Source: a plasmid. Taken from it: a stretch of DNA of 64,000 bases. Below are positions 37,976-59,231 of the stretch, piece by piece. Location: the sequence record NZ_CP072340.1. One strand, written 5' to 3'. The translations under genes were made by a program, and so were the position numbers. Numbering within the stretch: position 1 is the first letter of the stretch; every line of letters starts with the position of its first letter. The notes beneath the pieces were generated by a model, which saw nothing but the letters and a program-made list of their open reading frames with translations, had not been told where the DNA came from and made no database searches.

Positions 37976-39205
37976 ATGAAACAAGAGAAAATGAAGGTGT
38001 TGCTCTACCTCAAAAAGAGCGGTCTTGACAAGTCGGGCAAGGCTCCGATTATGGGACGTATCACACTTGGAAGGAATGTTGCCCAGTTCAGTTGTAAACT
38101 CTCCTGCAATCCAGAGTTGTGGAATCCCCGTGAGAGTAGAGTGGACGGCAAGAGTCGTGAGGCAGTAGAGATAAACGGCAGGTTGGAGAGTTTGCTGTTG
38201 TCTGTTCAGTCGGCTTATCAAGCCTTACTTTCCAAAGGTTGCCCATTTGACGCAACCGATGTAAAGGAACTGTTTCAAGGCAGCGTACAGACACGATGTA
38301 TGCTTATCGAACGATTGGACATCCTCATCAGGGAGAAGAAAGAACATATTGGAATTGACATTAAGAGAGAAACAATTTCCAATTACTATACTACCCGTAA
38401 TAATCTTAGGACATTTATCGAAGACAAGTACAAGGTGGAAGATTTGTCTTTCTCGCAACTTACAGAAAATTTCATTTATGATTTCAGGGACTACTACTTG
38501 AACAAATTAGGGTTTCAGGAAAGTAGTTTCTATGCAGTTGCATCCCAAATAAAGACCGTATGCAGGTTGGCATACCGTGAAGGATTGGCTGACACCTTAT
38601 TATTTGCTAATGTAAAGATAGCAAGAGGTGATAAGAAACTCCCAAAGGCACTTGACAGACGTTCACTTGACAAACTAATGAATACCCACTTCGGAGAGTT
38701 GGAGGAAGAAATGGAAACAGCAAGGGATTTGTTTGTTTTTGCCTGTCATACAGGTGCAGCCTATTGTGATTTAATGGGATTAAGTAAGACACATCTTGTC
38801 CGTGATGATGAGGAAAATCTTTGGATGAAGTTCAATAGGCAGAAGACAGGTGTACTTTGCCGTATTAAGTTGTTGCCCGAAGCGATTAGGATAATAGAGA
38901 AGTATCGAAGCGAAGAAAGGGAAACGCTGCTGCCACAGATGAAGTATGCCACCTATCAATCGTATCTTAAAGCATTGCGCCTTAGAGTGGGCATTGCCTT
39001 TCCCTTTACCACGCATACGGCAAGGCACACCTTTGCTACGCTCATCACGCTTGAGCAAGGAGTTCCGATTGAAACTGTGAGCAAGATGCTCGGACATAGC
39101 AACGTAAGTATGACCGAGCGTTATGCAAAGGTTACACCCCAAAAACTCTTTGAGGAGTTTAATCGTTTTCTTTCTTTCACGGAGGATATGCAGATGAGTA
39201 TTTAG
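37976..39205 (+). CDS. Tyrosine-type site-specific integrase (CTnDOT IntDOT-like, with an N-terminal arm-binding domain).
   Basis: N-terminus KVLLYLKKSGLDKSGKAPIMGRITLGR. C-terminal catalytic motifs HTARHTFATL..., LGHSNVSMTERYAKV. Confidence 0.9.
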   Translation: MKQEKMKVLLYLKKSGLDKSGKAPIMGRITLGRNVAQFSCKLSCNPELWNPRESRVDGKSREAVEINGRLESLLLSVQSAYQALLSKGCPFDATDVKELFQGSVQTRCMLIERLDILIREKKEHIGIDIKRETISNYYTTRNNLRTFIEDKYKVEDLSFSQLTENFIYDFRDYYLNKLGFQESSFYAVASQIKTVCRLAYREGLADTLLFANVKIARGDKKLPKALDRRSLDKLMNTHFGELEEEMETARDLFVFACHTGAAYCDLMGLSKTHLVRDDEENLWMKFNRQKTGVLCRIKLLPEAIRIIEKYRSEERETLLPQMKYATYQSYLKALRLRVGIAFPFTTHTARHTFATLITLEQGVPIETVSKMLGHSNVSMTERYAKVTPQKLFEEFNRFLSFTEDMQMSI

Positions 39206-39233
39206 CAATAGACATATTAAAACTAAAATCATT

Positions 39234-40511
39234 ATGAGAAGTACATTCAAGATACTGTTCTATATCAACAGACAGAAAACTAAGGCAGACGGCAATACCG
39301 CCATTCTCTGCCGTATCACCATAGACGGAAAGAACACAGCCATTACCACAGGCGAAGAGTGCCAGCCTGCCGAGTGGAACTCCAAACAGGGTTTGACAAC
39401 CAATAGGAAGACCAACCAAAGAATCAATGAGTTCAGGGAATTGGTAGAAAAAACCTATCGGGACATACTGACGAGGGACGGAGTGGTAAGTGTGGAACTT
39501 ATCAAGAACAGTTTGCAAGGCATTGCCACTAACCCCACCACGCTCCTTGCAATGAGCAAAGCGGAACTGCAAGCCGTCAAGGAAAGCGTTGGAAAGTCAA
39601 GGGCAGAGGGGACTTATCTGAACCTTTACTATTCTGATAAAAATCTCCGAGATTTTATCGAAAACAAAGGAGTACAAGACATATCTATCGTCACCATTAC
39701 GGAGAGTTTGTTCGAGGAATACCGTTTCTTCCTAAAAAAGCGTGGGCTGAAAGCATCGACTGTCAATACCAATCTCAGTTGGCTGAGCCGACTGATGTTT
39801 CGTGCGGTGAGCAGCAGGATTATCCGCTGCAATTCCTTTGAGAACGCCAAGTATGAGAAGGAGGAAAAGAAGATACGCTTCTTGCAAAAGGGCGATGTAA
39901 TGAAACTTATGGCAATGACGATGAACGACAGAGAATCGGAATTGGCACGGCTGATGTTCGTCTTCTCCTGCTTCACAGGTATGGCTATCGCTGATATGGA
40001 AAATTTGGAATACAGGCATATCCAAACGGCAGCGGATGGGCGGAAGTATATCCGCAAGGAGCGTCAGAAGACAAAGGTTGAGTTTGTCGTACCATTGCAC
40101 CCGATAGCAGAGGCTATTATCCGCCATTGTCTGGAAGAGCAGAAAGGGAATGAAGAACAGCAGACGGTGAAAGAAAAAGGTAAAAAACATATCTTTCCCC
40201 GTGAGTGCAGCCGGAGCGTGATAGACGGCAGACTGAGTATTGTTGGCAAGGCTTGCGGTATCAGACAGAGATTGTCGTACCATGTTGCAAGGCATACCTT
40301 CGGTACGATGAGCCTAAGTGCAGGAATACCTATTGAGAGTATAGCCAAGATGATGGGGCACGCTTCCATATCAAGCACGCAGATTTATGCGCAGGTAACG
40401 GACAACAAGATTTCGGAGGATATGGACAGGCTTATTGCCAAACAATCGGCAAAGGATAAAGAAACTATGGAGAGAGAGGTTTGTGAACCAAACTCTGCTA
40501 ACTCGTTGTAA
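39234..40511 (+). CDS. Tyrosine-type site-specific integrase, second of the tandem pair.
   Basis: N-terminus MRSTFKILFYINRQKTKADGNTAILCRITIDGK. C-terminus VARHTFGTM..., MGHASISSTQIYAQV. Confidence 0.9.
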   Translation: MRSTFKILFYINRQKTKADGNTAILCRITIDGKNTAITTGEECQPAEWNSKQGLTTNRKTNQRINEFRELVEKTYRDILTRDGVVSVELIKNSLQGIATNPTTLLAMSKAELQAVKESVGKSRAEGTYLNLYYSDKNLRDFIENKGVQDISIVTITESLFEEYRFFLKKRGLKASTVNTNLSWLSRLMFRAVSSRIIRCNSFENAKYEKEEKKIRFLQKGDVMKLMAMTMNDRESELARLMFVFSCFTGMAIADMENLEYRHIQTAADGRKYIRKERQKTKVEFVVPLHPIAEAIIRHCLEEQKGNEEQQTVKEKGKKHIFPRECSRSVIDGRLSIVGKACGIRQRLSYHVARHTFGTMSLSAGIPIESIAKMMGHASISSTQIYAQVTDNKISEDMDRLIAKQSAKDKETMEREVCEPNSANSL

Positions 40512-40975: not shown

Positions 40976-41311
40976 ATGAAACAGTTGCACAAAACCCTAA
41001 AGGAAAAGCGAGAGCTTGAAGGTTACTCACAAGAGTATGTCGCTGGAAAACTGAATGTTAGCTCAAGTACCATTTCACGATGGGAAACTGGAGCTGTGTC
41101 GATGACCACCTCACAAACTTACAGTTATGCCAAGGTATTGGGATGGGATGAACTCGACCTGCTTGCATCTATTGCACAAAGACAACAGGCAAGACCGCTT
41201 CCACTCGCTCAGATGAGTATCGAAGTGTTTGACAAGGAATCCTACGACAGAATTATAGATCTTGTAAAGGAGCTTGGGCCGCAACACATTATTTTACAAA
41301 CCAAATTATAA
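40976..41311 (+). CDS. XRE-family helix-turn-helix transcriptional regulator.
   Basis: HTH_3 pattern LKEKRELEGYSQEYVAGKLNVSSSTISRWETG. The track start is at 40940. The Met at 40976 is more plausible. Confidence 0.75.
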   Translation: MKQLHKTLKEKRELEGYSQEYVAGKLNVSSSTISRWETGAVSMTTSQTYSYAKVLGWDELDLLASIAQRQQARPLPLAQMSIEVFDKESYDRIIDLVKELGPQHIILQTKL

Positions 41312-41317
41312 AGGCTG

Positions 41318-41698
41318 ATGGAAATAATCGCAGTAGAAAGCCAAGCCTATCAGGAACTGATAGACAGGCTCAACCGAATAGAGCGGTATGTTGAGCGCAC
41401 TTCTCATCTTATCCAAGATATAGATGACGAGCTGGAGATGACAACCAAAGATCTTATCGGGACTCTGAATGTTTCAGAGTCCACCCTTTATCGCTGGCGC
41501 AAGAAACAGTTGGTACGGTATCGCTACACGGAGGGTGGCGATGTACGCTACTTCTTCAAGTCTATCGTGATAGCCACGAAATGTAACCGACTCCGTGTCT
41601 CAGGCATGAGAAACGACGAGGTTCTTGGTCGGCTCAACCGTTTTAAGGACAATCTCATCATAAGTTCATGTCTTAATCCTAAAAACCGACAACTATGA
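41318..41698 (+). CDS. Excisionase-like HTH_17 (MerR-type) DNA-binding protein.
   Basis: TKDLIGTLNVSESTLYRWRKKQLVRY is the canonical Xis/HTH_17 helix. It is typical of a small CTn accessory protein. Confidence 0.65.
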   Translation: MEIIAVESQAYQELIDRLNRIERYVERTSHLIQDIDDELEMTTKDLIGTLNVSESTLYRWRKKQLVRYRYTEGGDVRYFFKSIVIATKCNRLRVSGMRNDEVLGRLNRFKDNLIISSCLNPKNRQL

Positions 41699-43755
41699 TA
41701 GAAAAGGAACAGATTCTTTTGCTTACACAGGGAGGTCTGAATGTGTTTTCCCATTTCCTCGGCTTTGAGGTAAACCTTCATCGCAACTTCCGAAGCCCCT
41801 TCTATGACGACAGACGGGCTTCCTGCCATATCTACTACGACAGGAAAACTTCTTCTTACAAATTCTATGATCATGGCGATACCACCTATTCAGGGGATTG
41901 CTTCTGGTTTGTGGCAACCCTCCGTAACTTGAACCTGAAAACAAGTTTTCCCGAAGTCTTGGAAACTATTGTACAAGAACTTGGATTGTATTCTTTATGT
42001 GATGGTGAAAAGCATAGCAACCATATCACGTTATCATATAAAAGAACTATCGTTCCCACTCCTAAGGCTGATATAACCAAGTGTACGGAAGAACGTCCAT
42101 ACAGTTTTGAGATACAGCCTTTTGACGATGGACTGATGAACTATTGGGCGCATTATGGTATCCATGAAGATACACTTCGGCTTTTTCGTGTACGGAGTCT
42201 TAAACGGTATGATAGCGTATCAGCCGAAGGTAAGAAGTTTGAGCTTCACAGTTCGCCGACAGAACCGATATTCGCCTATATTGGAAATGGCTATGTCAAG
42301 ATATATCGCCCTCACAGTCCGAAAATCCGCTTTCTCTATGGCGGGCGGATGCCTATGACCTATTGTTTCGGCATGGAGCAGATTCCCACCAAAGGAGATA
42401 TGCTCTTCATTACAGGTGGGGAAAAAGATGTGCTCTCGTTGTATGCGCACGGGTTCAATGCAATCTGCTTCAACAGTGAAACGGCACAAATACCGGAAAG
42501 CATCATAGAGAGCCTTCAACTTCGCTTTCGGCATATCATTCTCTTGTATGATGCAGATGAGACGGGTGTACGGGAAGCGCATAGACAAGCTGAACATTTG
42601 GCAGAATACAAGGTATTGAATCTTACACTCCCACTTAGTGGAACCAAGGCGGAAAAGGACATTTCTGATTTCTTTGCCTTAGGCAACGGGGCGAAGGAAC
42701 TGAAAGAACTGCTTGCCAAGATGTTTACAGACCTATATAGCCAAACCATGATGATGCTTCGCTCCTGTGAGATTGACTACGACAATCCACCGGATATTTC
42801 CAAGACTGTGGTGGCTGTGAATGGTGTCCCTTTGGGAACGCAGGACAATCTGTTCTGCATTACCGGAGGTGAGGGTACGGGCAAGAGCAACTATGTAGGA
42901 GCCATCCTTGCCGGAGCTTTGGGGAATAAACGGCTGCCGATAGAGAAAACCTTGGGATTGGAGATTACCGCCAATCCCAAAGACTTGGCAGTCCTACATT
43001 ATGACACAGAACAGTCCGAGGCTCAACTGCACAAGAATCTGGGCAAGACATTGCGCCGGGCTTCATTGACGGCAGTACCGAAGTTTTACCATTCACTCTA
43101 CCTTGCCTCACTCTCTCGTAAGGACCGCTTGAAACTTATCCGTGAAAGTATGGACTTGTTCCATCACAAGCATGGTGGAATACACCTCGTTGTCATTGAT
43201 GGTATTGCTGATCTGATACGTTCTGCGAACGATGAAACGGAAAGTATAGCCATTGTTGACGAACTTTACCGCTTGGCAGGGATATACAATACTTGTATTA
43301 TCTGCGTATTGCACTTCGTGCCGAACGGCATCAAACTTCGGGGACATATCGGCTCGGAACTTCAACGTAAGGCGGCGGGTATCCTTTCCATAGAGAAAGA
43401 CGACAATCCCGAATACTCGGTCGTAAAGGCGTTGAAAGTGCGTGACGGAAGTCCGTTGGACGTACCGATGATGCTTTTCGGCTGGGACAAGGAAGAAGAC
43501 ATGCACGTCTATCGTGGTGAGAAGTCCAAGGAGGACAAGGAAAAACGCAAAACCGATGAGCTTATTGGCGTTGTCAAAGAAGCCTTCCGAAATTCTTTCA
43601 AGCTCACTTACCAAGAACTTTGTGAGGTTCTGATGCGAGAGATGGAAATCAAGGACAGGACCGCAAAGAAATATATTGCCTATATGAAAGAGCAGCGTAT
43701 TTTGATACAAGATACAAGTGGGAATTATCAAAAAGGAGAATTATGCCATACTTAG
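41695..43755 (+). CDS. Bifunctional DNA primase (Toprim) / P-loop helicase-like protein of the conjugative element.
   Basis: Toprim acidic motifs ([23 protein letters not shown]) are followed by a P-loop [16 protein letters not shown] and a RecA/DnaB-like ATPase region. 686 aa. Confidence 0.7.
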
Positions 43756-44051
43756 ATCAACAGCCAGAAGATACATGGCAGAAACGCCTGTTTGATAAAC
43801 TGAAGAATATGGAAGACAAGCTCGACCGTCTGCTTGTCCTACGGGAACAAGAAGTAGATACGACCATTCACCCTCCATTGAAACCCGAATACTTGGATAT
43901 CATAGATGTCTCCAAAATTTTGAAGGTGGAACAAAAGACCATTTACAACTGGGTTTGGGCTGGAAAAATTCCTTATCTTAAAGCCAATGGCAGATTACTT
44001 TTCCTTCGGAAAGAGATAGATGAAATGCTACGGAAACAAGGGAACTGGTAG
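43743..44051 (+). CDS. Excisionase-like HTH_17 DNA-binding protein.
   Basis: [40 protein letters not shown] is an Xis-type HTH_17 motif. It overlaps the primase stop. Confidence 0.65.
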
Positions 44052-44056
44052 GCACC

Positions 44057-44111
44057 CGTTCATTATTTAATGCTTGTTCAATTTTGTTGAACAAGCATTA
44101 AATAATGAACG
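44057..44111. promoter_or_regulatory. Perfect 25-bp inverted repeat (CGTTCATTATTTAATGCTTGTTCAA-TTTTG-TTGAACAAGCATTAAATAATGAACG). Terminator and/or operator for the downstream three-gene operon.
   Basis: Read directly. Four further TGTTCA/TTGAACA motifs follow at 44134 to 44189, including the palindrome GTTCAATCCTATTGAAC at 44153..44169. They are interleaved with a TATCTTTG -7 box at 44141..44148, ending just before the ATG at 44192. Confidence 0.65.
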
Positions 44112-44140
44112 AAAAAATTTGCAGTTTGATTTTTGTTCAC

Positions 44141-44148
44141 TATCTTTG
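44141..44148 (+). promoter_or_regulatory. Candidate -7 promoter element TATCTTTG for the wHTH/NTase/PP2C operon.
   Basis: An exact TAnnTTTG match about 44 bp upstream of ATG 44192, flanked by TGTTCA-type repeats. Confidence 0.35.
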
Positions 44149-44191
44149 CAGTGTTCAATCCTATTGAACGACTATAAATATTGAACAAGAT

Positions 44192-45193
44192 ATGTACGGA
44201 ATACAGATTATAGATCAGGCGGTTAGTGCGATAAGGAGACAGTGGGAGGATTCTCAAGATGTCATAATCGATGCGCTTCAGCCGGAAACGCCTTCGATGG
44301 AACAATACGTCAGAATTATGGGCATAGAGTTCCGATGCCTTGTTGAAAATGAGATAAATGGAACAAATATCCTGCGCATTGAAGAAAAATCAAAGAGCTG
44401 TATGGGGACCTACAAGGGACCTGTCATATTGGTTGCAAGATATGTACAGCCATCTGTCTATGGAACTTTGCGTAAAATGGAACTTAACTTTGCTGACACG
44501 GCAGGTAACTACAATATACAGTACACGAAGGGCAGGAAAGTGATATTCCACCTTTCTCACACAGGGGAGAAAGTCCCTGTGAATAACAACAAAAACTATC
44601 CTATATTCCAAGAAGCAGGCCTGAAGGTAATCTTTTATCTCTTGCAAGCTCCTGAGAATGTGGGCAAATCTTTTCGGGAAATCAAGGAGTATAGTGGAGT
44701 TTCGATAGGTACTGTCAAAAATGTGATTGATGAATTGGAAGTCCGTAAGTTTATTCTCGTAACTCAGAAGAAAAGAGTTCTGAAAAAACGTCGTCTTTTG
44801 CTTGATTTATGGTCGGAAAACTATCGTCAGATATTAAAGCCCAAGTTGCTGTTGAAGCAGCTGGATTTTCGCACACCGGAACAAAAAGAAAAATGGGAAG
44901 AAATAGCATTGCCAAATGGTATGTTATGGGGTGGAGAGTGTGCATCTAATTTATTGAATGGTTACCTTACTCCGGAACTTTTTGAACTCTATACAGAGAC
45001 ACCTTTCTCCAATCTGATGAAGACCGGCGCAACACGGACTACCGAAGGAGTTATTTATATATATCAGAAGTTTTGGAAAGGCGATGTAATGCCCTGCATT
45101 TTGATATATGCCGATTTAGTAAGTAGCGGAGACAGCCGTTGTATTGAAGCTGCAAATAAATTATTAAAAGATGAACTTTCAGATTTCGAGTAA
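44192..45193 (+). CDS. Hypothetical protein with a central winged-HTH domain. Candidate antitoxin/regulator partner of the downstream nucleotidyltransferase.
   Basis: 333 aa. wHTH-like segment LLQAPENVGKSFREIKEYSGVSIGTVKNVIDELEVRKFI. No enzymatic motif. The stop overlaps the next gene's start by 23 nt. Confidence 0.5.
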   Translation: MYGIQIIDQAVSAIRRQWEDSQDVIIDALQPETPSMEQYVRIMGIEFRCLVENEINGTNILRIEEKSKSCMGTYKGPVILVARYVQPSVYGTLRKMELNFADTAGNYNIQYTKGRKVIFHLSHTGEKVPVNNNKNYPIFQEAGLKVIFYLLQAPENVGKSFREIKEYSGVSIGTVKNVIDELEVRKFILVTQKKRVLKKRRLLLDLWSENYRQILKPKLLLKQLDFRTPEQKEKWEEIALPNGMLWGGECASNLLNGYLTPELFELYTETPFSNLMKTGATRTTEGVIYIYQKFWKGDVMPCILIYADLVSSGDSRCIEAANKLLKDELSDFE

Positions 45194-46025
45194 GAAGATT
45201 GGCAACCCCCTGTTGGTTGAACTGCTAAGAAAAGTCAGTCATTGTTTTGCTGAGATTGGGCAGGATTTCTTTGTTATCGGGGCTACTGCGCGAGATATTT
45301 TAATTCGGCAGTTAGTAGGTATAAGTTCAGGGAGAAAGACGAGGGATTTAGACCTCGCCATAGCCATTCCCGATTGGAATGCATTCGAAGAGATTAAGCG
45401 GGCATTATTAGCACGAGGGTTTCAAAAAGACGGACAGATGTATCAACGGTTCTATGATGGCGACTACGAAATTGACATAGTACCATACGGAGATATAGAA
45501 AGAGAAGATGGATACATATACTGGCCTCCTGAGGAGGATATAGCTATGTCCGTTAAGGGGTTTGCTGATGTGCTGAGTGATGCTATTACCGTAACGATTG
45601 ACAATGAATTCGACATCAAGATAGCATCGTTGCATGGATTATTTGTATTGAAGTTCAATGCTTGGTTAGACAGGAATATCCAAACGAATAAAGATGCCGT
45701 AGATATGGCATTCATTCTGGAAAACTATTTCATTGCTAACTTGAATAGGAACTTGCATGCAGAAGTGTATGATTGGGAAGACTTTGATGAGATTGTTGTC
45801 GGAGCTTATTGGCTTGCTTATGACATTGTCGGATTTCTATCAAAAGAGCATCTTTGCCACTATGAGCAATGTCTGCGGAATGAGATAGAGAAAAGAGAAA
45901 ATAGCAGGCTGATACAACAGGTTATAGATAGTAGCAGTGTTTTTTCTTATGAGAAACTGCTCCTCGCATTTCAAAAAATGATTGCCGTATTTGATAAAGT
46001 TTTGCATGGTGAAGATCCAGATTGA
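45171..46025 (+). CDS. Pol-beta-superfamily nucleotidyltransferase (AbiEii/DUF1814-like or minimal NTase).
   Basis: The NTase fold motif hG[GS]x9-13Dh[DE]h is present as FVIGATARDILIRQLVGISSGRKTRDLDLAIAI. The third acidic residue is in YEIDIVPYGDIE. 284 aa. It overlaps both neighbouring genes. Confidence 0.6.
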   Translation: MNFQISSKKIGNPLLVELLRKVSHCFAEIGQDFFVIGATARDILIRQLVGISSGRKTRDLDLAIAIPDWNAFEEIKRALLARGFQKDGQMYQRFYDGDYEIDIVPYGDIEREDGYIYWPPEEDIAMSVKGFADVLSDAITVTIDNEFDIKIASLHGLFVLKFNAWLDRNIQTNKDAVDMAFILENYFIANLNRNLHAEVYDWEDFDEIVVGAYWLAYDIVGFLSKEHLCHYEQCLRNEIEKRENSRLIQQVIDSSSVFSYEKLLLAFQKMIAVFDKVLHGEDPD

Positions 46026-46641
46026 AAGCTTAAGTATTCCGGCTGGTAAAGAAAATGGAGATTACATTCTCCAACGAGAATTGCCTAATGGAGCAACACT
46101 CATTCTACTTGCAGATGGGATGGGTGGTTTGTCATTGCCGGAAAGTGCTTCAAAAATTGTTTGCGAAGCTATCTCAGAATATTTCGTAAAAACCGATATA
46201 ATTGATTGTACGGAACATATCCTCAGGAGCATCAAATATGCTGATGAGCGTCTGGCTGCTTTTTGCAAGGAGAAGAAATCCAAGATGGGTGCGGCTTTAC
46301 TTCTTGTATATATCAGTGATGCTATGCTCTTCTACACATCTTTGGGAGATGTGCGCCTATACTATCGAGACAAACAAGGAGAAGTAATTCAACTAACAAA
46401 CGATGATACCATTATGCAAGGAGCAGACACTTATCTGACAGCTTGCATTGCGGGAAGAGGTTTTAGAAACCCCATTCAGGTTCAACGTTTGCCATTGAAT
46501 ATGGGTGATTCTCTGCTGCTTTGTAGTGATGGCTATTACAAAGTTCATGATATTCCCCATTGTTTTCACCATAAAGAGCAGACACCTCCAACATTGGTAG
46601 ATGACGACAGCTCTGTTGTCAGAATAGAAATTATACAATGA
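45982..46641 (+). CDS. PP2C-family Ser/Thr protein phosphatase.
   Basis: Metal-binding PP2C signatures LLADGMGG near the N-terminus and LLLCSDGYYKV near the C-terminus. 219 aa (or 211 aa from the Met at 46006). Confidence 0.7.
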   Translation: MPYLIKFCMVKIQIESLSIPAGKENGDYILQRELPNGATLILLADGMGGLSLPESASKIVCEAISEYFVKTDIIDCTEHILRSIKYADERLAAFCKEKKSKMGAALLLVYISDAMLFYTSLGDVRLYYRDKQGEVIQLTNDDTIMQGADTYLTACIAGRGFRNPIQVQRLPLNMGDSLLLCSDGYYKVHDIPHCFHHKEQTPPTLVDDDSSVVRIEIIQ

Positions 46642-46727
46642 ATCTGTCAAATTCTCTGATACGGTTTCTCAAAAGCGTCAAACACTTTATTTCAAGTACT
46701 TGGCGCTTTTCGATACAATAAGACATT

Positions 46728-48320
46728 CTACATCTTCCACTTTGGTTTTGAGATAATAACTTTGCTCGTAATGTCATTGTTGTCGGATACATTCTGCTGA
46801 CTATTGTTCTTGGGAGATGTGGGCAAAGGTATGTTGTCTGTGTTTTTTGAGAATGAATTCTTATAAGAACGGGGTTCTGATATATCATCTACTGATTTAC
46901 TTTGCTGTATGGCACCATGCTGTGCCTCTTGCCCTATATCCTCTTTTTCCTCCTCCGGTGGAGCAAGGGTAAGTGCAATTCGCCTATCCAGTTCGGCTGC
47001 CTCGCCTTTGAGCGTGCGAAGCTCTTCTTCCTTTTTCCAAGAGCTGCCCGCAATGTTGGTGTAAACGTCTTTATTGGCTGCGACCTTTTCCATCTCCTTT
47101 TCGTGCGACTCTATTACCTTCGGGATACGCTCCAAGGCATTGATAAAGTTCTGGCAAGCAAGTTTCGGATCGGATGCCAGCTTACCGTTATTATAGGTAT
47201 AGTAGATACTCTCCTGCCCCTTCACAAAGAAACGATTTACAGAGCAATCAAACAAGTCCTTGGAAGTGCTCTCCGTCTTAACCATAATAGAAAAGCCATA
47301 AATCTCACCGATTTTGTTGTATTCCCCCTTGGTGCGTGCTTTCTCGTCTATTTCCTGCAGACGTGCAGCAATGGCCTTGATATCGGTGCTGTCTTCCACA
47401 CCTTTGATAGTCAGCTTATTGATAGGCACACCTTCCTCATCACGCTCCACACGCTTCTCAAAGAGAGCCAAGTCAGACTGTGCCTCCTTGACTTTGTCTG
47501 TATGGAAAGACACGGAACTCTCAATCTCTGCCAGCTTGCCCGTTGCGGCATCACGCTCACGGAGAAAGTTCTTGCGCTCTGATTCCAAGGTGGTAATCTT
47601 CTTATCCAATCTTGCTTTTTCCAAAAGGTCGGTATTGCCTGAAAGTACTGCTACATATTCTGAAAAGTTCATACCGCTGTCCTCGTCCATCGATCCCTCG
47701 TCAATGGTACGGCTCCCTAAAGTGTTCGTCTTTAACTGGTTGATGAAAAGCTGCTTGTTGTGCAGCAGGTTGAACTTGTAACTGTCCAACGAGCGTTCCA
47801 CGGCATAAATAATCACATCGACCTTGTTGTCGGCAAACTCCTTGGCAACAAGATTACCTTTACGGATGGCACGCCCGTTACGCTGCTCTAAGTCCGATGG
47901 TCGCCACGGCGTGTCAAGTTGATGGACCGCTACTGCCCGCTGCTGGGCATTCACACCTGTGCCCAACATGGACGTAGAACCGAAGATAATGCGAATATCA
48001 CCACGGTTCATCGCATCTACCATTGCCTTCTTTGCTTTCTCGTTCTTGCACTCCTGAATGAAGCGTATCTCATAAGATGGAATATGATAGTCTTCTACCA
48101 ACTTTCTCTTGATTTCCGAATAGATATTGAAGTCTCCACCAGGCTTGTAAGTACCCAAGTCTGAGAAAACAAACTGCGTTCCTTTCTGTGCATCGTACTT
48201 TTGGTAATAGTCATTGAGCATTTTGGCACAGTGACTTGCCTTGTTGTCGATATGATCTGAGTAAGCATTTTCATCAATCATGCGTAAATCAAGGCTCATC
48301 TTCCTCGCATAATCAGTCAT
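46728..48320 (-). CDS. C-terminal fragment of the CTn N6-methylase/SNF2-family helicase (helicase C domain plus a coiled-coil tail).
   Basis: Helicase motifs IV-VI (IIFGSTSMLGTGVNAQQ, VHQLDTPWRPSDLEQRNGRAIRKGN). The protein begins MTDYARK..., the same six residues with which the 59727.. fragment ends (...[16 protein letters not shown]). Confidence 0.75.
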   Translation of the reverse strand: MTDYARKMSLDLRMIDENAYSDHIDNKASHCAKMLNDYYQKYDAQKGTQFVFSDLGTYKPGGDFNIYSEIKRKLVEDYHIPSYEIRFIQECKNEKAKKAMVDAMNRGDIRIIFGSTSMLGTGVNAQQRAVAVHQLDTPWRPSDLEQRNGRAIRKGNLVAKEFADNKVDVIIYAVERSLDSYKFNLLHNKQLFINQLKTNTLGSRTIDEGSMDEDSGMNFSEYVAVLSGNTDLLEKARLDKKITTLESERKNFLRERDAATGKLAEIESSVSFHTDKVKEAQSDLALFEKRVERDEEGVPINKLTIKGVEDSTDIKAIAARLQEIDEKARTKGEYNKIGEIYGFSIMVKTESTSKDLFDCSVNRFFVKGQESIYYTYNNGKLASDPKLACQNFINALERIPKVIESHEKEMEKVAANKDVYTNIAGSSWKKEEELRTLKGEAAELDRRIALTLAPPEEEKEDIGQEAQHGAIQQSKSVDDISEPRSYKNSFSKNTDNIPLPTSPKNNSQQNVSDNNDITSKVIISKPKWKM

Positions 48321-48610
48321 TAAGAATTAAGGGAAATAGGGGGAAACGCAAGGAATGTAACTATTTGAAATAATATCATTTAGCATTTTCTTACTATTTT
48401 GAGGGTAAGCAAGAACGAGCATCAAACGGCAGGAGTTCCGTTACCAAATCGTAACCCATCAGGGAAAAAGCAAAAAGGGGTTACGAATTGAATGTAAACA
48501 ACTGTGTCATAGGTTTTTATTCTTCATCTTTCATTATTCTGCATCGCTCAGGAATACTTGTTCGTATGTACCTTTGCAAGCAAAGGAAATTTAGAAAAAA
48601 CGACAGAAAA

Positions 48611-49831
48611 ATGAAAGAAAACAAACTCAAAGTATCGTTCTTCGTTCAGGCGAAACGAACCGACAAGAAAGGACTTGTGCCTGTCATTGGGCGAATCTCC
48701 GTTGGCAGAACCCATTCGGGCTTCTCCACCAAGTGTAAGACTCCGCTCGCTCTTTGGGACAGCCGTAAGCAACGGCTCATCGGTAAGAGCAGCATGGCTG
48801 TGTCCGTCAATCAGAAACTCGGCGAATGCACCGCACTTATCCACGCACGCTTTCACGAACTCAGTGAAAGGAAAGAAACTTTCACAGCCACAGACGTGAG
48901 GGATGCCTATCAAGGACAAATCCACCGCCAAACCCTGCTCTTGGAGAGTTTCGGGGAGTATCTCACACAGACAAAGGAGCGCATAGGCATTGATAGAGCT
49001 TTAAAGACATTCAAACTCCGTACCTACCAGCTATCCCTGCTTCGTGAGTATGTGCAGAAGAAGCACAAAGTAAGCGACATTCCACTCTCACAGCTGGACA
49101 AAGCATTTATCGAGGGCTTCGAGTATTATCTCACCATTGACCGAAAGCTGAAACGCAGCAGCGTATCGAGTGCCTTATCCACCTTGCAGACCATCGTCCG
49201 CATGGCGGTAAAGAAAGGTGTGCTGGACTTCTATCCTTTTTTGGGATACAGTTACGAGCGACCAAAGGGTGAACCAAGAAGCATTACGCAGGAAGAACTT
49301 GAGCGCATCATCGAGTTGAAGATTGAATGGGAGAACTATCGTATTGTCCGTGATTTGTTCGTCTTCTCCTGCTTTTCAGGGCTTGCCATCTCCGATGTCC
49401 GCAATCTGAGAGAGGAAAACATTGTCTTGGAAGAAGGCGAACTCTGCATCAAGGGCAGCCGAATGAAGACCAAAACTCCGTATCGTGTACAGGTACTTCC
49501 TCCTGCTTGGGCGATAATGGAGCGTTACAGAGGAAAGCGTGCAGGCTTTGTCTTTGACGTACCGACTACCGACATTATCCTCAATGGCATGCACCACATA
49601 CAGAGAAACATCGGCATGGAAAGTCCGCTGACCTTCCACATGGCTCGGCACACCTTTGCGTCGCTAATCACACTCTCGGCAGGTGTACCTATCGAAACGG
49701 TGAGCCGTATGCTCGGACACACCAACCTGAGAACAACACAGGTATATGCAGCGGTTTCCTCCGAAAGAATCCATCGGGACATGCAGATAGTGCAGCAGCG
49801 CATACAAGATACATTCACCTTAAAACTTTGA
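48611..49831 (+). CDS. Tyrosine-type integrase (IntDOT-like), first of the second tandem pair.
   Basis: MKENKLKVSFFVQAKRTDKKGLVPVIGRISVGR is collinear with the 37976 integrase. C-terminus HMARHTFASL..., LGHTNLRTTQVYAAV. The track start at 48488 is probably too early. Confidence 0.85.
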   Translation: MKENKLKVSFFVQAKRTDKKGLVPVIGRISVGRTHSGFSTKCKTPLALWDSRKQRLIGKSSMAVSVNQKLGECTALIHARFHELSERKETFTATDVRDAYQGQIHRQTLLLESFGEYLTQTKERIGIDRALKTFKLRTYQLSLLREYVQKKHKVSDIPLSQLDKAFIEGFEYYLTIDRKLKRSSVSSALSTLQTIVRMAVKKGVLDFYPFLGYSYERPKGEPRSITQEELERIIELKIEWENYRIVRDLFVFSCFSGLAISDVRNLREENIVLEEGELCIKGSRMKTKTPYRVQVLPPAWAIMERYRGKRAGFVFDVPTTDIILNGMHHIQRNIGMESPLTFHMARHTFASLITLSAGVPIETVSRMLGHTNLRTTQVYAAVSSERIHRDMQIVQQRIQDTFTLKL

Positions 49832-49835
49832 CCTC

Positions 49836-51104
49836 ATGACACGTAGTACATTCAAGACACTCTTTTATATCAATCGCTCCAAAGAGAAAAAGAACGGCAA
49901 ATGCCCGATTATGGGACGCATCACCATAGACGGTGAGCAGGTGCAATACAGCACGGGCAAGGAAATCGCTCCCGAACTTTGGGACAGTCGTAAGGGACGA
50001 TGCAAGGGTATAGGCGAAGAGACAAAGGAAATCAACCGCTATTTACAAAGCAAAGAGGAACAAGCCAAAGCGAAGTATCAAGAATTAGTCTGGCAACGTG
50101 GCTATATTACCGCTGAGTTGCTGAAGCGTGAACTCATGGAAGAAGACAAGCCCAAAGGTTTTCTTATGGAGGAAGCACGACTTTTCATAGAGGAAAAGCG
50201 TCCTTGCGTAGGAATAACGGTAGCCAAGCCGACCTTTGCCAACTACATCTATGCCACACAACTCATTGAGGCTTATTTGCGTGAACGCTTGGGGCTGGAG
50301 GATATTCGCTACTCATCGCTTGACTATGGTTTCATCGAGGGGCTGGACTTCTATCTTAAATCAGAGCGCAAACTCTCCCTTGCCACCATTCAGATTGTTG
50401 TCATTTTCCTGAGGAAACTCATCGGCATAGGTCAGCAGAAGAAGTATATCCGCATCGATCCGTTTGCAGACTACAAAGCAGAACTTCCACACCGCACAAG
50501 ACGTTATCTCACTACGGAGGAACTACAACGAGTATTGCAAACACCCATCATTGACAGACAATTCGAGCGAGCAAGGCAACTATTCCTTTTCTGTGCCTTC
50601 ACCGGTTTGGCTCGTGTAGATATGCAACGGCTCAAACCGAAGCATATCATCTATAATGCTGACGGCACGGCGGAAATCCGCATCAAAAGGCAGAAAACAG
50701 ACGTGGAAGCCATCATTCCACTCCTGCCCATTGCCACGCAAATCCTTTCGCTCTATATCAAGGACAAGAAAGCAGACGACTTGATATTCCCCAATCTCAC
50801 AATAAGGAAAGCATCCTTTGCGTGTGTGAACATCGGGCAGATATGCCGGATAGAGAAAGGCTTGACCTTTCACATGGCTCGCCACACATTCTCAACCACG
50901 ATTTGCCTTTCCAACGGCATCTCAATGGAAACGCTCAGCAAGATGCTCGGACACAGCAATATAGGTACGACACAAATCTACGGAAAGATAACCGACCACA
51001 AGATACAAGAGGATATGACCGCACTCACTGACAGGGAGCATTCTGTATTTGAGGGTTATTGTGAGTCGATAGCACGGCAGAACGTTCCATTGCAACAAGC
51101 ATAA
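49836..51104 (+). CDS. Tyrosine-type integrase, second of the second tandem pair.
   Basis: MTRSTFKTLFYINRSKEKKNGKCPIMGRITIDG is collinear with the 39234 integrase. C-terminus HMARHTFSTT..., LGHSNIGTTQIYGKI. Confidence 0.85.
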   Translation: MTRSTFKTLFYINRSKEKKNGKCPIMGRITIDGEQVQYSTGKEIAPELWDSRKGRCKGIGEETKEINRYLQSKEEQAKAKYQELVWQRGYITAELLKRELMEEDKPKGFLMEEARLFIEEKRPCVGITVAKPTFANYIYATQLIEAYLRERLGLEDIRYSSLDYGFIEGLDFYLKSERKLSLATIQIVVIFLRKLIGIGQQKKYIRIDPFADYKAELPHRTRRYLTTEELQRVLQTPIIDRQFERARQLFLFCAFTGLARVDMQRLKPKHIIYNADGTAEIRIKRQKTDVEAIIPLLPIATQILSLYIKDKKADDLIFPNLTIRKASFACVNIGQICRIEKGLTFHMARHTFSTTICLSNGISMETLSKMLGHSNIGTTQIYGKITDHKIQEDMTALTDREHSVFEGYCESIARQNVPLQQA

Positions 51105-51156
51105 AAAGGAAGTAATTACCAAACATTTATTATTCACGATTGAAAACCAAACGATT

Positions 51157-51624
51157 ATGAAAGAGAACAACAAACAGGAACTTTCTTACTTTCGATTGAA
51201 ATTAAGAAGTTATATGAGTGAGCATCACCCCGAAAAATTGCACGACACGGAGTTTATCACCACACGAGCAGACATGGCTCTCACTGCCTACTGCGATGCT
51301 GTGGCACAAGGTTTTTCGCACCTCGAAGCAGAGAACATAGCAAGTGAGGTGTTGTATCAAGGTTTGCACTTTTCCAAGTACGACACGCTTGTTTCTGTCT
51401 TAGAGAACGAGTTTGAGAGGGAACTGCCTGCACCACTCCCTGAGAAGCTTGCACCCATATTGTTGTCGAATGAGGCTGTTCAAGCCACATTCGACAAGTT
51501 CGGTTTGACGGACACATTTGCTTCTGACGAGCAATACGACCGTCTTTACACCGAACTCACAGGCACGATTGTGCTGCTCATCGAGAGCAATCATTTGCCA
51601 ATAATCGGTCAGACGGAGGGGTAA
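51157..51624 (+). CDS. Conserved hypothetical protein of Bacteroidales integrative elements (DUF1896-like).
   Basis: 155 aa, acidic and helical. The position directly after the integrases is the typical one for DUF1896. The family assignment is from memory of the architecture, not from motif proof. Confidence 0.45.
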   Translation: MKENNKQELSYFRLKLRSYMSEHHPEKLHDTEFITTRADMALTAYCDAVAQGFSHLEAENIASEVLYQGLHFSKYDTLVSVLENEFERELPAPLPEKLAPILLSNEAVQATFDKFGLTDTFASDEQYDRLYTELTGTIVLLIESNHLPIIGQTEG

Positions 51625-51724
51625 GTCCAAAGGCGTTGTAAGCAAAGGCACACGCAAAGTCCCTGATGCCGTTTCTTATCGTGCAAAGGTACAACGGCAG
51701 CTAATCTGCCCTGACAAGGTCAAG

Positions 51725-51770
51725 TCCTGCGGATGGAGAGAAGAATCTCCACCGCAGGATTTTTCTTTTT
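51725..51770 (+). terminator. Rho-independent terminator (stem of about 13 bp, TCCTGCGGATGGAGA / TCTCCACCGCAGGA, plus TTTTTCTTTTT).
   Basis: Read directly. A long GC-rich hairpin with a single bulge is followed by a U-run, downstream of the DUF1896-like gene. Confidence 0.7.
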
Positions 51771-51967
51771 CAAGGTGGTATTGCCATTTTCAATAGCCAT
51801 GCGGTCGTATTCATCTCTCCCAACCTTGCAGAGCAGGGCTGCCGTAGAGAGTATAGGCACGACAAGAATACGGCATACTCAGGCTCTTTGGACGCAAGGC
51901 GTAACAACCAACAACAGATAGGACTGACGATAATACGGACAATCTGTTGTTTGTACAATTTGTTGTC

Positions 51968-52080
51968 ATGACTATCTATTGTCAAAACTATATATCGTCA
52001 AAATAATCTATCGATAAAACTATCTATCGACACTTCGACATCTCGATTTGTCGAACTATCGAATTATCGATAAAACAACA
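51968..52080. repeat. Iteron-like array of ATCGA(T)-core short repeats (TATCGATAAAAC twice, TATCGACAC, ATCTCGATT, TATCGAATTATCGATAAAAC).
   Basis: Read directly. There are at least six ATCGA cores in about 110 bp. TATCGATAAAAC is an exact 12-mer at 52003 and 52062. It lies in the intergenic region upstream of the Xis-like genes of the nested element. Confidence 0.55.
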
Positions 52081-52303
52081 AAATAATAAAAGGAACGAGC
52101 CGGCACCTCATCTCATTACCGCAATAACACAGATGGATCTCCTTTGGTCTTTTCTCTTGTTTTCTCTCTATTTCCCTGCTTATCCTCATTTCTTGCAGCG
52201 GTGCTTCCGAGGGTTTACTTTTGCACTTGATAAGTACGGCAATGGACTGCATAACAGTTTGTTTGCCGAGTAACAATAAAGTAATCAAAACAAAATTAAG
52301 GCA

Positions 52304-52573
52304 ATGAAACTCATTATCATCGACCGCAAAGCGTGGGAGCGACACCACTCCGAATTTGCAGACTTTATCCACAGTATCGAACAACTCATCGGCAATCCGC
52401 CCGAAACGGACGAATGGCTTGACAACGAAGCCGTGTGCAAGCGTTTGGGCATCAGCAAACGTACCCTGCAATCATACAGAGATACGGGGAAAATCCCTTT
52501 CTCAATGATTGGACACAAGTGCTATTACAAGGAGAGCGACATCACGGAGTTACTGAACGCAAACAATGAATGA
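52304..52573 (+). CDS. Xis-like HTH_17 DNA-binding protein.
   Basis: LDNEAVCKRLGISKRTLQSYRDTGKIPFSMIGHKCYYKESDI is an HTH_17 excisionase-type motif. 89 aa. Confidence 0.65.
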   Translation: MKLIIIDRKAWERHHSEFADFIHSIEQLIGNPPETDEWLDNEAVCKRLGISKRTLQSYRDTGKIPFSMIGHKCYYKESDITELLNANNE

Positions 52574-52576
52574 ACT

Positions 52577-52891
52577 ATGACAGAGAACGAAATCATTACA
52601 CAGCAAGCCCCTCAGATGCAGATGTTTGCACAACTGATGGAGGGCATCTTAAAGAAACTGGAGCGTTATTGCGCTACCGCCCGTCCGATGCTGGGCGGAG
52701 AGGTTTACCTCACTGGCGAGGAGGTTTGCAGCCAATTACGGCTCAGCACACGCACGCTCCAAGAGTACAGAAACTTAGGAACACTTCCTTTCTACAAAAT
52801 CGGAGGGAAGATACTTTACAAACAGAGCGACATACAAACAATGCTTGAAAGGCATTATAACGCAATACCCAAGAAATTATGGCAAGAATAG
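52577..52891 (+). CDS. Xis-like HTH_17 DNA-binding protein (second copy).
   Basis: LTGEEVCSQLRLSTRTLQEYRNLGTLPFYKIGGKILYKQSDI is a paralogous HTH_17 motif. 104 aa. Confidence 0.65.
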   Translation: MTENEIITQQAPQMQMFAQLMEGILKKLERYCATARPMLGGEVYLTGEEVCSQLRLSTRTLQEYRNLGTLPFYKIGGKILYKQSDIQTMLERHYNAIPKKLWQE

Positions 52892-53385
52892 ATGAACAAA
52901 GGAAACAGCGTCTGGAACAAGCCCTTCGAGATATGGGCAATTATGGCGTTAAGCTCCGCAAGCCAGAAGAGTTGCCCGATTTTGATCAGCCCATAGATTA
53001 TGAAGAGGAAAAGAAAAGATTTGAGCCTGTTAAAGTTGAGGAACAAAATGACAAGGAGAGTCACAAGGACTATTCTCAACCGTCCAATCAAGAAACAGAG
53101 TTGTCACCAAAGGAAAGGGCTACTTCTACTGAAGAGAATCATCAACGAATGGGAAAAACAAGGGACAGGAAGCAATTATCCGAGTTTCAGGGGAAATATC
53201 TCCAGCCCTTTCGCAACAGCCACCGCAAAGCCGTGTATGTATCAGAGGAAACTCAACGAAAGTTGGACTTCGTGGTGAGGAAAATCGGTGAGCAGGGAGC
53301 AAGCGTTTCAGGATATGTGGAGCAGGTGCTTCGAGAACATCTCGACCAATACAAAGATGATGTGGAAAGATGGCGGAAACTCTGA
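52879..53385 (+). CDS. DUF3408-like conjugative-element protein with a C-terminal ribbon-helix-helix-like segment.
   Basis: 168 aa with a charged low-complexity middle region. C-terminus AVYVSEETQRKLDFVVRKIGEQGASVSGYVEQVLREHL is RHH-like. Confidence 0.45.
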   Translation: MARIDEQRKQRLEQALRDMGNYGVKLRKPEELPDFDQPIDYEEEKKRFEPVKVEEQNDKESHKDYSQPSNQETELSPKERATSTEENHQRMGKTRDRKQLSEFQGKYLQPFRNSHRKAVYVSEETQRKLDFVVRKIGEQGASVSGYVEQVLREHLDQYKDDVERWRKL

Positions 53386-53487
53386 AGTACTGCATTCCTC
53401 GAATGCAAGCCTACGCCGAGTTACTGTATTCAGTGAATGCAGTAACACGGCATGGGCTTATAATCCCATTTTCTACATCAGCAAGGT

Positions 53488-54021
53488 GTGTCTTTGTCCG
53501 ACAAACTACCGTTTGTCCCACAAAAACCCTTGCCCCGAAGGGGATTAAATCACTCCAAAGTCGTGATTAGACAACAAACAAAACAAGTTAAGATTATGCC
53601 TAAATTAGAAATAGCCAACAACAACCGCTACGGTCATCGTAGGATAGAAGAAGTGCCACGCTGGGACAGATGGGACACCCGTATGCCAGATGTGAAAGAC
53701 CAACTGCGAGCCATCGACCTGTACAACAAGTCGGGGGCAGTGAGCAAGTCCGATTTCGTTCGTGCCCGTATCCTTGGAGAGAGATTCAAGGTGATAATGG
53801 TGGATAAGTCCGCAGTTGAGTATTACCGCAAGCTCTCTGAACTCACAGCCCAAGTACATAAGATTGGCATAAACTATAATCAAGTCGTCCGCTTGATGCA
53901 CCTTTATACGGCAGAGAAAAGTGTAAAAGCTTTGTTGCAGGAACTTATCCAACTAACAAAAGAACTCACTACCTTCCAAGAGAAAGCAGTGAGTTTAACC
54001 ATTGACTATCGGGAGAGATAA
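53488..54021 (+). CDS. MobC-family relaxosome accessory (mobilization) protein.
   Basis: The conserved MobC-family motif KIGINYNQVVRLMH corresponds to the G.N.NQ.AR.LN consensus. The probable start is the Met at 53596 (MPKLEIANN...). No relaxase gene follows. Confidence 0.55.
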   Translation: MSLSDKLPFVPQKPLPRRGLNHSKVVIRQQTKQVKIMPKLEIANNNRYGHRRIEEVPRWDRWDTRMPDVKDQLRAIDLYNKSGAVSKSDFVRARILGERFKVIMVDKSAVEYYRKLSELTAQVHKIGINYNQVVRLMHLYTAEKSVKALLQELIQLTKELTTFQEKAVSLTIDYRER

Positions 54022-54037
54022 GGAATGTGCGATGGAA

Positions 54038-54523
54038 TTATATTCCCCCAAGCATTTTTTGCAGCAGATTGCCCGATGTTCGTGTTATTTGGAAGTCTAT
54101 GGTTTGGTTTTCTACTGTTTTTATGTCGGCTGGCTTGAAACGACAAAGGGCTTCCTGACGCTCCAATGTGTCACGGACGGAAGAAAGGTCCTGTATCTGC
54201 CCTGCAAACGTTCCATAGGGAGATTGCAGATAAATCATTTGTCTGTTTACATTGTCGGGGCGTTTATTCTCGAACTTTAATAAGATGGTTATATCTGTGC
54301 TGTCCGCTGGTGTTGCGGTTGTTGCTCCGTGTACGGTAGCCGTTCCCGAATACACTTGTTTATAAGGCAGGAAATAGGCTACGGCTAACAGACAAAGCAA
54401 AACAGCTCCTATGGCAGTAATACCATAACGAACGAGAGATGAGGGTATCTGCCCCACGATGCTGCGTACTTTCTCGCTGCGGAGCTCAAAACTCCGTTCC
54501 TGTTTCTTTTCCTGGTTTTCCAT
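54038..54523 (-). CDS. HlyD-family membrane-fusion/adaptor protein, N-terminal 161-aa fragment (apparently truncated).
   Basis: A cytoplasmic charged N-terminus, one TM (YGITAIGAVLLCLLAVAYFL), then the start of the periplasmic domain. Full-length partners of C39 ABC exporters are about 400 aa or longer. Its start overlaps the ABC gene's stop. Confidence 0.45.
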   Translation of the reverse strand: MENQEKKQERSFELRSEKVRSIVGQIPSSLVRYGITAIGAVLLCLLAVAYFLPYKQVYSGTATVHGATTATPADSTDITILLKFENKRPDNVNRQMIYLQSPYGTFAGQIQDLSSVRDTLERQEALCRFKPADIKTVENQTIDFQITRTSGNLLQKMLGGI

Positions 54524-54524
54524 A

Positions 54525-56738: not shown

Positions 56739-56804
56739 TTATGATATATAAAACTATACTAAAAATACTATACTAAAGTAAATATTAAATTTGCAAAAAT
56801 ATTA

Positions 56805-59141: not shown

Positions 59142-59231
59142 TACAACAAGAAAGTTATAGAGATATAAAGTTGTAAATAAAAATAAAATGTCTGACTATG
59201 AACGAAAGAGCATAGTCAGACACAGAAACTC

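Follow-up and report, generated by a model that had tools for sequence, protein, structure and literature searches.

A candidate AbiE/MenAT-type toxin-antitoxin module with a dedicated PP2C gene as a possible phosphate eraser

Why should an operon that resembles a toxin-antitoxin pair end in a gene for a protein phosphatase? The question is raised by three co-directional, overlapping open reading frames (ORFs), here called g1, g2 and g3 and together the trio, on the + strand of plasmid record NZ_CP072340.1. The DNA analysed is a stretch of 64,000 nt of this record, referred to as the window, and all coordinates are positions in it. An earlier sequence-only reading placed the three ORFs where we find them, and took them for a winged helix-turn-helix (HTH) protein, a nucleotidyltransferase and a PP2C phosphatase that might form a toxin-antitoxin or abortive-infection module. 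On balance we lean towards reading the locus as a tripartite AbiE/MenAT-type toxin-antitoxin module, of the abortive-infection or addiction kind, with an operon-encoded phosphate eraser. The data that bear on this reading are family membership, catalytic competence at the level of sequence, a phospho-acceptor motif, an exclusive and co-evolving linkage of the genes, and a conserved operator.

The three proteins and a predicted phospho-acceptor

The central gene g2 (45171-46025) encodes a putative toxin of 284 residues, an AbiEii/MenT-type, COG4849-like nucleotidyltransferase. Residues 30-204 match Pfam AbiEii (PF08843) with 35.8 bits against a gathering cut-off of 22.5 (E-value 1.1e-8), and a curated model thus backs the kinship with AbiEii/DUF1814 toxins that had been suspected earlier. 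The family comprises 2,679 cluster representatives at E ≤ 0.001, and relatives carry the name “nucleotidyl transferase AbiEii/AbiGii toxin family protein”. The catalytic motifs consist of a glycine motif, I36-G37-A38-T39, the catalytic pair D59-L60-D61 located 19 residues further on, and D102; they replace the motif GS-x10-DLDLA that had first been read here. Motif III, K161-F-N-A164-W165-L-D-R168 (KxxAWxxR), fits the COG4849 form KLxAaxxR as defined by Dy et al. 2014, and D175 and D178 lie downstream of it. Across 48 divergent relatives, the residues G37, A38, T57, D59, D102, K161 and D178 are invariant.

Neither g2 alone nor a profile of its close homologues found anything meaningful among solved structures; only the profile of the 48 divergent representatives reached MenT1 (PDB 8AN4), which was its best solved structure in this sequence-profile search. 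In the resulting alignment, R55-K56-T57-R58-D59-L60-D61 of g2 corresponds to R37-F38-T39-R40-D41-V-D43 of MenT1, and K161, D175 and D178 correspond to the K137 region. MenT1 is auto-phosphorylated at T39, and its T39, D41, K137 and D152 are conserved residues of the fold; the equivalent loop of MenT3 holds R76, S78 and K79, and the equivalent site of AbiEii is T65. Likewise, g2 has a Thr two residues ahead of the first catalytic Asp, and the motif R-x-T-x-D-L-D is invariant in every locus copy analysed, with or without a PP2C gene. T57, the equivalent of MenT1 T39, is the predicted phospho-acceptor. The following residue 58, which corresponds to MenT1 R40 and MenT3 K79, both contacts of the gamma-phosphate, is Arg or Lys in 46 of 53 trios versus 12 of 27 modules that consist of the g1-g2 pair only (loci L001-L084), a skew that may reflect phylogeny rather than function.

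The fold of g2 is similar to that of the solved MenT toxins, and the top structural matches also include ANT(2'')-Ia and LnuA, two small-molecule adenylyltransferases. The latter matches would suit a locus that has nothing to do with toxins or defence, in which g2 is a resistance enzyme of the aminoglycoside/lincosamide type, or a housekeeping nucleotidyltransferase, kept under a dedicated repressor, and the PP2C is a passenger; one component of a multi-gene candidate has indeed been labelled AAD(2'') (Payne et al., bioRxiv 10.1101/2024.01.29.577857). We consider such a locus very improbable, in view of the score of g2 above the Pfam AbiEii cut-off, its COG4849 motif III and its MenT-type R-x-T-x-D-x-D loop, to which the genomic evidence described below adds.

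Upstream of g2, the gene g1 (44192-45193) encodes a putative antitoxin and autorepressor of 333 residues. Its AlphaFold model (pLDDT 85.5) consists of an N-terminal alpha/beta domain (residues ~1-125), a winged HTH (residues ~141-197) and a C-terminal AbiEi_2 domain (residues ~200-333), in agreement with the winged-HTH core that had been recognised from the letters. Pfam gives weak HTH matches at residues 145-194, in addition to a match of residues 197-325 to AbiEi_2 (PF09952) with 66.5 bits against a gathering cut-off of 21 (E-value 4e-18), and close relatives already carry the NCBI name “type IV toxin-antitoxin system AbiEi family antitoxin”. An AbiEi relation had been suggested before, and it stands for the COG4861/AbiEi_2 branch rather than for COG5340: beyond the winged HTH, no similarity in sequence or fold was found between g1 and AbiEi of the COG5340 branch (PDB 6Y8Q), and the g1 profile had no matches among solved structures. 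Because motif III of g2 fits the COG4849 form and its partner is of the AbiEi_2 kind, the g1-g2 pair is assigned by sequence to the COG4861-COG4849 type within the AbiE/MenAT superfamily, a type of pair predicted to be AbiE-like (Dy et al. 2014).

The third gene g3 (46006-46641) encodes a minimal PP2C Ser/Thr phosphatase of 211 residues. It matches Pfam PP2C_2 with 60.2 bits against a cut-off of 24 (E-value 2.7e-16) and the NCBIfam Stp1-type model with 75.6 bits (E-value 4e-21), far under the equivalog cut-off of 230 bits. Its best solved sequence relatives are bacterial PP2Cs, including PstP (4.7e-7) and Stp1 (8e-6). Both motifs pointed out earlier, ADGMGG and SDG, are present, and, counted from the ATG at 46006, the metal-binding aspartate positions D19, D37-G38, D175-G176 and D200 are invariant across 35 relatives; D133 is also listed as invariant. 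Judged by its residues, g3 appears to be catalytically competent. It lacks the ~20-residue insert that longer PP2Cs have at the presumed position of the flap, and has neither a membrane nor a regulatory extension.

The three genes are tightly packed. The overlap of g1 and g2 is 23 nt, exactly as first described, and the identical 23-nt overlap occurs in the unrelated locus L001. By contrast, the 44-nt overlap that had been given for g2 and g3 needs an unlikely TTG start at 45982 (ORF 45982-46641), which was dropped on the lengths and alignment of homologues. As these are 205-211 residues long and their alignment begins at MVKIQIE, the ATG at 46006 is almost certainly the real start of g3, giving an overlap of 20 nt. 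An Rfam search of 43000-47500 returned zero RNA families, and therefore no sign of an RNA antitoxin; a terminator scan revealed nothing convincing 3' of g3.

Linkage of the phosphatase gene and the proposed eraser

Relatives of g2 were sought with an intermediate g2 alignment in one genome per species, which gave 403 genomes, and the loci of the best 80 were analysed. All of the best 80 are labelled Bacteroidota, bar one Lachnospiraceae-labelled metagenome-assembled genome (MAG), and they include Prevotella, Porphyromonas, Bacteroides, Alistipes, Muribaculaceae and Flagellimonas. Profile searches in these 80 loci found g1, an AbiEi_2 protein, directly upstream of g2 wherever upstream DNA is present, which speaks against a mere resistance or housekeeping enzyme. 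A PP2C gene lies directly downstream of g2 in 53 of the 80 loci; two of the 27 loci without PP2C stop at a contig edge, leaving 53 of 78 informative loci. The trio thus recurs across many genomes and in many contexts, as the sequence-only reading required.

The linkage is even stricter when seen from the phosphatase. A metagenome scan seeded by the PP2C alignment yielded 70 loci at E ≤ 1e-17, and in each of the 67 whose upstream DNA can be read, g2 is the gene directly before the PP2C; 62 of these loci are full trios. The ten weakest matches of the scan are generic PP2Cs of ~245 residues, and none of the nine with readable upstream DNA has g2. Since this PP2C clade is never found without g2, the phosphatase is not a passenger. 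In the viral collection, seven relatives were found among 2.9 million contigs, all seven of them trios; a phage origin as typical for the trio was dismissed on this small number.

Pairwise identities of the three proteins are closely correlated (g2-g3, r = 0.92; g1-g2, r = 0.96; g1-g3, r = 0.95), and the PP2C is the fastest-evolving member of the trio, with a mean identity of 0.39 versus 0.61 for g2. In a neighbour-joining tree of g2, PP2C is present throughout one large clade with at least 10 scattered absences, and is sporadic in the outer clade. On the exclusive linkage, the identity correlations and the scattered absences on the tree, the PP2C is a dedicated, co-inherited yet dispensable third component. 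One Bacteroidaceae MAG carries, 40 nt past g2 and in the slot of the PP2C, a 267-residue calcineurin-like phosphoesterase (Metallophos, E-value 4.9e-7; L035:4881-5684, +), which may be a non-orthologous replacement of the phosphatase; no second swap of this kind was found among the loci analysed.

The same correlations bear on what g3 acts upon. The co-variation of g1 and g3 is as strong as that of g2 and g3, as would be expected if g3 did not serve the toxin but tuned g1, in its binding to DNA or its action as an antitoxin; a phosphoprotein of the host or of a phage might also be the target, with g3 as a sensor or co-effector of the module. Phage-defence modules of a kinase and a phosphatase do exist, such as KKP of Pf prophages, and in one pair-only locus a Hanks-type Ser/Thr kinase (Pkinase, E-value 1.7e-47; L066:5647-7299, +) lies ~800 nt downstream of the PP2C-less g1-g2, possibly by coincidence. 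We nevertheless regard a non-toxin target as unlikely. The strong correlations may simply reflect co-inheritance, the conserved module has no kinase, and the only phosphorylation predicted within the operon is by the toxin's own chemistry. The flap of PP2Cs helps to select the substrate, and the lack of the presumed flap insert and of extra domains in g3 points to one dedicated partner rather than to broad targets.

In several copies, most of them from metagenomes, the reading frame of g1 or g2 is broken into two or three pieces, apparently by frameshifts (L089, L093, L094, L110, L132, L147, L152, and also L064). Such splitting is consistent with the decay of a toxic module, with assembly error as the alternative, and would be less expected of a resistance or housekeeping enzyme. 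The outer-clade modules without PP2C point the same way, as they often head restriction-modification loci, in which a same-strand HSDR_N/N6_Mtase fusion or HsdM gene comes next (~10-80 nt past g2 in L070, L071, L074, L082 and L083; also L076:4850-7309). This is a defence-island setting.

A role for a phosphatase beside such a toxin is suggested by the biochemistry of its relatives. Work of 2020-2026 revealed that MenT toxins and AbiEii are silenced by antitoxin-induced auto-phosphorylation. Upon binding of AbiEi, AbiEii phosphorylates its T65; this phosphorylation abolishes the activity of the toxin and is the only means by which it is neutralised in vivo. MenT1 (T39, with MenA1) and MenT3 (S78, with MenA3) are silenced in the same manner. 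Stp1 of S. agalactiae dephosphorylates phosphorylated AbiEii in vitro and restores its activity, and PstP of M. tuberculosis dephosphorylates phosphorylated MenT3 in vitro, the recovery of activity not having been examined in that study. AbiEi is not unstable, and its authors invoke “cellular phosphatases” for re-arming, stating that the role of a phosphatase in vivo is unexplored. If the toxin is silenced covalently and its antitoxin is stable, there is no obvious route of re-arming. As a phosphatase is invoked for the re-arming and the present operon supplies a PP2C in cis, g3 is proposed as the eraser of the T57 phosphate; a phospho-switch on the toxin, one of the options raised at the outset, would fit this published biochemistry.

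The proposed cycle runs as follows. A g1 dimer would repress the operon via two operators, O1 and O2, the second of which would overlap the transcription start. Active g2 would block translation, presumably by extending the 3' ends of tRNA, which are what the characterised relatives MenT1, MenT3 and AbiEii modify. In the presence of g1, g2 would be made to phosphorylate T57 of its own active site, within R-K-T-R-D-L-D, resulting in a covalent shut-off, and g3, dedicated and co-translated, would continuously strip the phosphate off. Silenced g2 would therefore last only while g1 is being made, and once the supply of g1 fails, because the element is lost or a phage causes a shut-off, g2 already in store would be re-armed without new synthesis. 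An eraser of its own would free a module that moves between genera from dependence on host phosphatases.

A bolder version, to which we give a little less than even weight, holds that the trio is the first toxin-antitoxin system with a self-encoded eraser, where the toxin is its own kinase, the antitoxin an allosteric inducer of the writing, and the PP2C a constitutive eraser, altogether forming a dead-man switch; the phosphoesterase of L035 would play the same role. If so, covalent silencing would lapse within minutes once the antitoxin supply or the level of nucleoside triphosphates drops, which would explain how toxins of type VII, neutralised by phosphorylation, can act in both element addiction and abortive infection in any host, independently of host phosphatases.

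The same gene order would also serve a different chemistry. PP2C-fold enzymes can hydrolyse protein-AMP bonds, as does the deAMPylase SidD of Legionella, and g3 might be a second, “repair” antitoxin, namely a SidD-like phosphodiesterase that removes the nucleotide which g2 puts on its target or on itself. The strict linkage of g2 and g3 fits this equally well, g3 has a faint match to NCBIfam deAMP_SidD (E-value 0.069), and the substrate of g2 is not settled, its closest folds including ANT(2'') and LnuA. However, the SidD match is below threshold and would be expected of any PP2C, and the stronger matches are to phosphatases of the Stp1/PstP type. The bond made by MenT1, MenT3 and AbiEii at the tRNA 3' end lies outside known PP2C cleavage, and we know of no PP2C that cleaves such a nucleotide bond, whereas the invariant T57 offers a phosphatase a ready substrate. 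We thus consider a repair antitoxin rather improbable.

Several points weigh against the eraser proposal. About one third of the related modules have no PP2C, which the toxin-antitoxin pair at the core accordingly does not need in order to function. MenT4, although paired with an AbiEi-type protein, is not phosphorylated, so that an acceptor residue is no guarantee of the mechanism. A constitutive eraser in the same operon would amount to a futile cycle, and the proposal would need a control that tips its balance. In addition, the case for an alternative phosphatase consists of one locus, L035, and both the phosphorylation of T57 and the action of g3 on it are steps that we infer.

Upstream repeats and the mobile element

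The proposed autorepression would act through repeats upstream of g1. The perfect 25-bp palindrome noticed earlier is exact: its arms (44057-44081 and 44087-44111) are 100% complementary and separated by a 5-nt spacer. At its core sits a 19-bp inverted repeat, TGTTCAATTTTGTTGAACA (44075-44093), the predicted operator O1. A second 19-bp inverted repeat, O2 (TGTTCAATCCTATTGAACG, 44152-44170), is located ~40 nt ahead of the g1 ATG and starts 3 nt past the Bacteroidota-type -7 box TATCTTTG (44141-44148), and therefore overlaps the expected transcription start. A TGTTCA half-site (44134-44139) abuts the box upstream, the two spanning 44134-44148 on the + strand, and an extra half-site, TTGAACAAG (44181-44189), lies directly upstream of the g1 start codon, a placement seen in most other loci inspected. 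In line with the further sites and the -7 box reported earlier, five TGTTCA/TGAACA hexamers fall within 113 nt (44075-44187), compared to ~0.1 expected, whereas over both strands of the 64-kb window 52 are found versus 49 expected, which is chance level.

The repeat is a property of the family. When the DNA upstream of g1 is compared over 82 loci, the best short inverted repeat nearly always has the form TGTTCAwT-N3-AwTGAACA. With two mismatches allowed, 78 of the 82 loci have one or more copies of this 19-bp operator no further than 200 nt from the g1 start, and 45 have two copies. The copies cluster at about -40 and about -116 relative to the g1 start. In the related loci inspected, the arrangement of half-site and -7 box (TGTTCAyTAnnTTTG) recurs, and the -40 copy starts ~2-3 nt past the box TAnnTTTG, which is abutted upstream by a TGTTCA half-site. 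Within the window, the 19-bp operator occurs only at 44075-44093 and 44152-44170, both upstream of g1, compared to 0.16 expected. The earlier idea of an autoregulated operator would apply to the 19-bp repeat, a conserved predicted operator, rather than to the 25-bp palindrome. The latter was dismissed as the conserved unit: its extended arms are lineage-specific and found in the closest relatives only, with 25 nt in L005-L008 and 22 nt in L009.

As RNA, the palindrome is predicted to form a hairpin of -36.6 kcal/mol (z = -8.3) that begins 6 nt past the stop codon of the upstream Xis-like gene; by conjecture, it might also insulate the operon. A scan for sigma-70 promoters was at chance (eight found versus 8.5 expected), the sigma-70 model not being applicable to Bacteroidota.

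The trio is flanked by an HTH_17 Xis-like gene and by the 3' end of a helicase gene, on an element that bears integrase and primase genes. Upstream of the trio, the window holds two tyrosine integrase genes, a Toprim/AAA_25 primase-like gene and the HTH_17 gene. Downstream, an N6-methylase/SNF2 helicase gene on the minus strand (46728-48320 and 59727-63902) is split, compared to Prevotella denticola, by an insertion of ~11.45 kb (48303-59757); accordingly, L005 is collinear with the window over 41171-48302 and then jumps to 59758. The insertion contains two tyrosine integrases (48488-51104), DUF1896, DUF3408, MobC_2, a C39-peptidase ABC exporter and an outer-membrane beta-barrel gene, and represents a further mobile element that lies inside the first. 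Each of the two elements begins on the left with an adjacent tandem pair of tyrosine integrase genes (37976-40511 and 48488-51104). The trio had been placed in the cargo slot of a conjugative element, between Xis and the methylase/helicase. The position, the integrases and the Xis-like gene were all found, but no conjugation genes of this element: among the window ORFs scanned there are no type IV secretion genes, and MobC_2 belongs to the inserted element. An integrative and conjugative element (ICE) is a plausible carrier of the trio; of this element, the window shows genes for integration, excision and replication only.

The surroundings of the trio vary with its divergence. A stretch of 7.1 kb is common to the window and Prevotella denticola at 99.55% identity; for the g2 protein, the identity with the copies in Hallella and Alloprevotella is 98%. 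In the clade of at least 75% identity, comprising oral Prevotella, Alloprevotella, Porphyromonas, Hoylesella and Hallella, the trio usually adjoins the Xis-like and/or the helicase gene, in addition to the primase-like gene where the locus extends that far, with the exception of L010 and L014, which have no Xis-like, helicase or primase-like neighbours. In the clade of at most 62% identity, the trio has unrelated neighbours, an ABC transporter and IS66 among them. Elements with the module are common to oral Prevotella, Hallella and Alloprevotella at ~98-99.5% identity.

Comparison with known systems

A related three-gene cassette has been listed before, and NCBI names relatives of g1 and g2 AbiEi and AbiEii, so that the module is not as undescribed as it had first seemed. 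PDC-M21 is a phage-defence candidate of the order A>>B>>C, derived by “guilt-by-embedding” in restriction-modification or BREX loci (Payne et al.). The cassette FAM_01665>>FAM_00091>>FAM_01402, with 166 instances, is the “candidate PDC-M21”, and the pair FAM_01665>>FAM_00091, with 713 instances, was rejected as a candidate. The commoner A>>B pair without C (713 versus 166) parallels the optional PP2C of the present module. The legend of Figure 6E in the same work describes a multi-gene candidate with Hyp, AAD(2'') and PP2C parts, which presumably corresponds to PDC-M21. PDC-M21 is an untested candidate, with neither a proposed mechanism nor a link to toxin phosphorylation.

A PADLOC search gave PDC-M21B as the best match of g2 (1.2e-7) and PDC-M21C as that of g3 (1.1e-5), both weak. 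It gave no match for g1, nor for g1 of the distant trios, and g1 is not placed in PDC-M21A. Of the more distant trios, the C component is matched at 1e-9 to 2e-15, the B component in one of three (5.4e-5), and the A component in none. The trio of the window is a distant relative of PDC-M21 that PADLOC would probably not call, and defence-finder tools would probably miss the module or report the AbiE pair only. A literature search, limited to one collection of papers, found none that connects a PP2C gene with an AbiE/MenT operon or treats such an architecture mechanistically.

The value of the locus is that it ties an orphan defence candidate to a specific mechanism and offers a minimal three-gene system for testing it. 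The dedicated PP2C gene behind such a toxin, in a compact and widespread operon, provides independent genomic evidence for dephosphorylation as the re-arming step. It is exclusively linked to the toxin gene, co-evolves with it, and was lost on several occasions.

In MenA1/MenT1 of Mycobacterium tuberculosis (Rv0078B/Rv0078A), MenA1 is small, has no winged HTH and is unrelated to g1, whereas MenT1 is ~90 residues shorter than g2, and there is no linked phosphatase gene. PstP and Stp1, which act on phosphorylated MenT3 and AbiEii, respectively, have their aspartate positions in common with g3; however, g3 has only 211 residues, and its clade is confined to positions behind g2-type genes.

A further parallel is AbiE of S. 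agalactiae and Lactococcus, lately moved from type IV to type VII. It likewise has a winged-HTH antitoxin gene that overlaps a downstream DUF1814 toxin gene, and in S. agalactiae it resides on an ICE. AbiEi autoregulates through two inverted repeats (IR1/IR2), to which the two-repeat layout upstream of g1 is parallel, and in the active site of the toxin, a Thr precedes the first catalytic Asp by two residues; Stp1 can reverse the phosphorylation of the toxin in vitro. The two systems differ in their families: the AbiE antitoxin is of the COG5340 type, whereas g1 is of the AbiEi_2/COG4861 type with an additional N-terminal domain, and the AbiE toxin belongs to COG2253, whereas g2 is closer to the COG4849 type of MenT1, the PADLOC models for AbiEii matching it only at E 0.018. 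Moreover, AbiE is bicistronic and relies on the only PP2C of its host, whereas here a PP2C is the third gene of the operon, and this third gene is what sets the module apart within the AbiE/MenAT superfamily.

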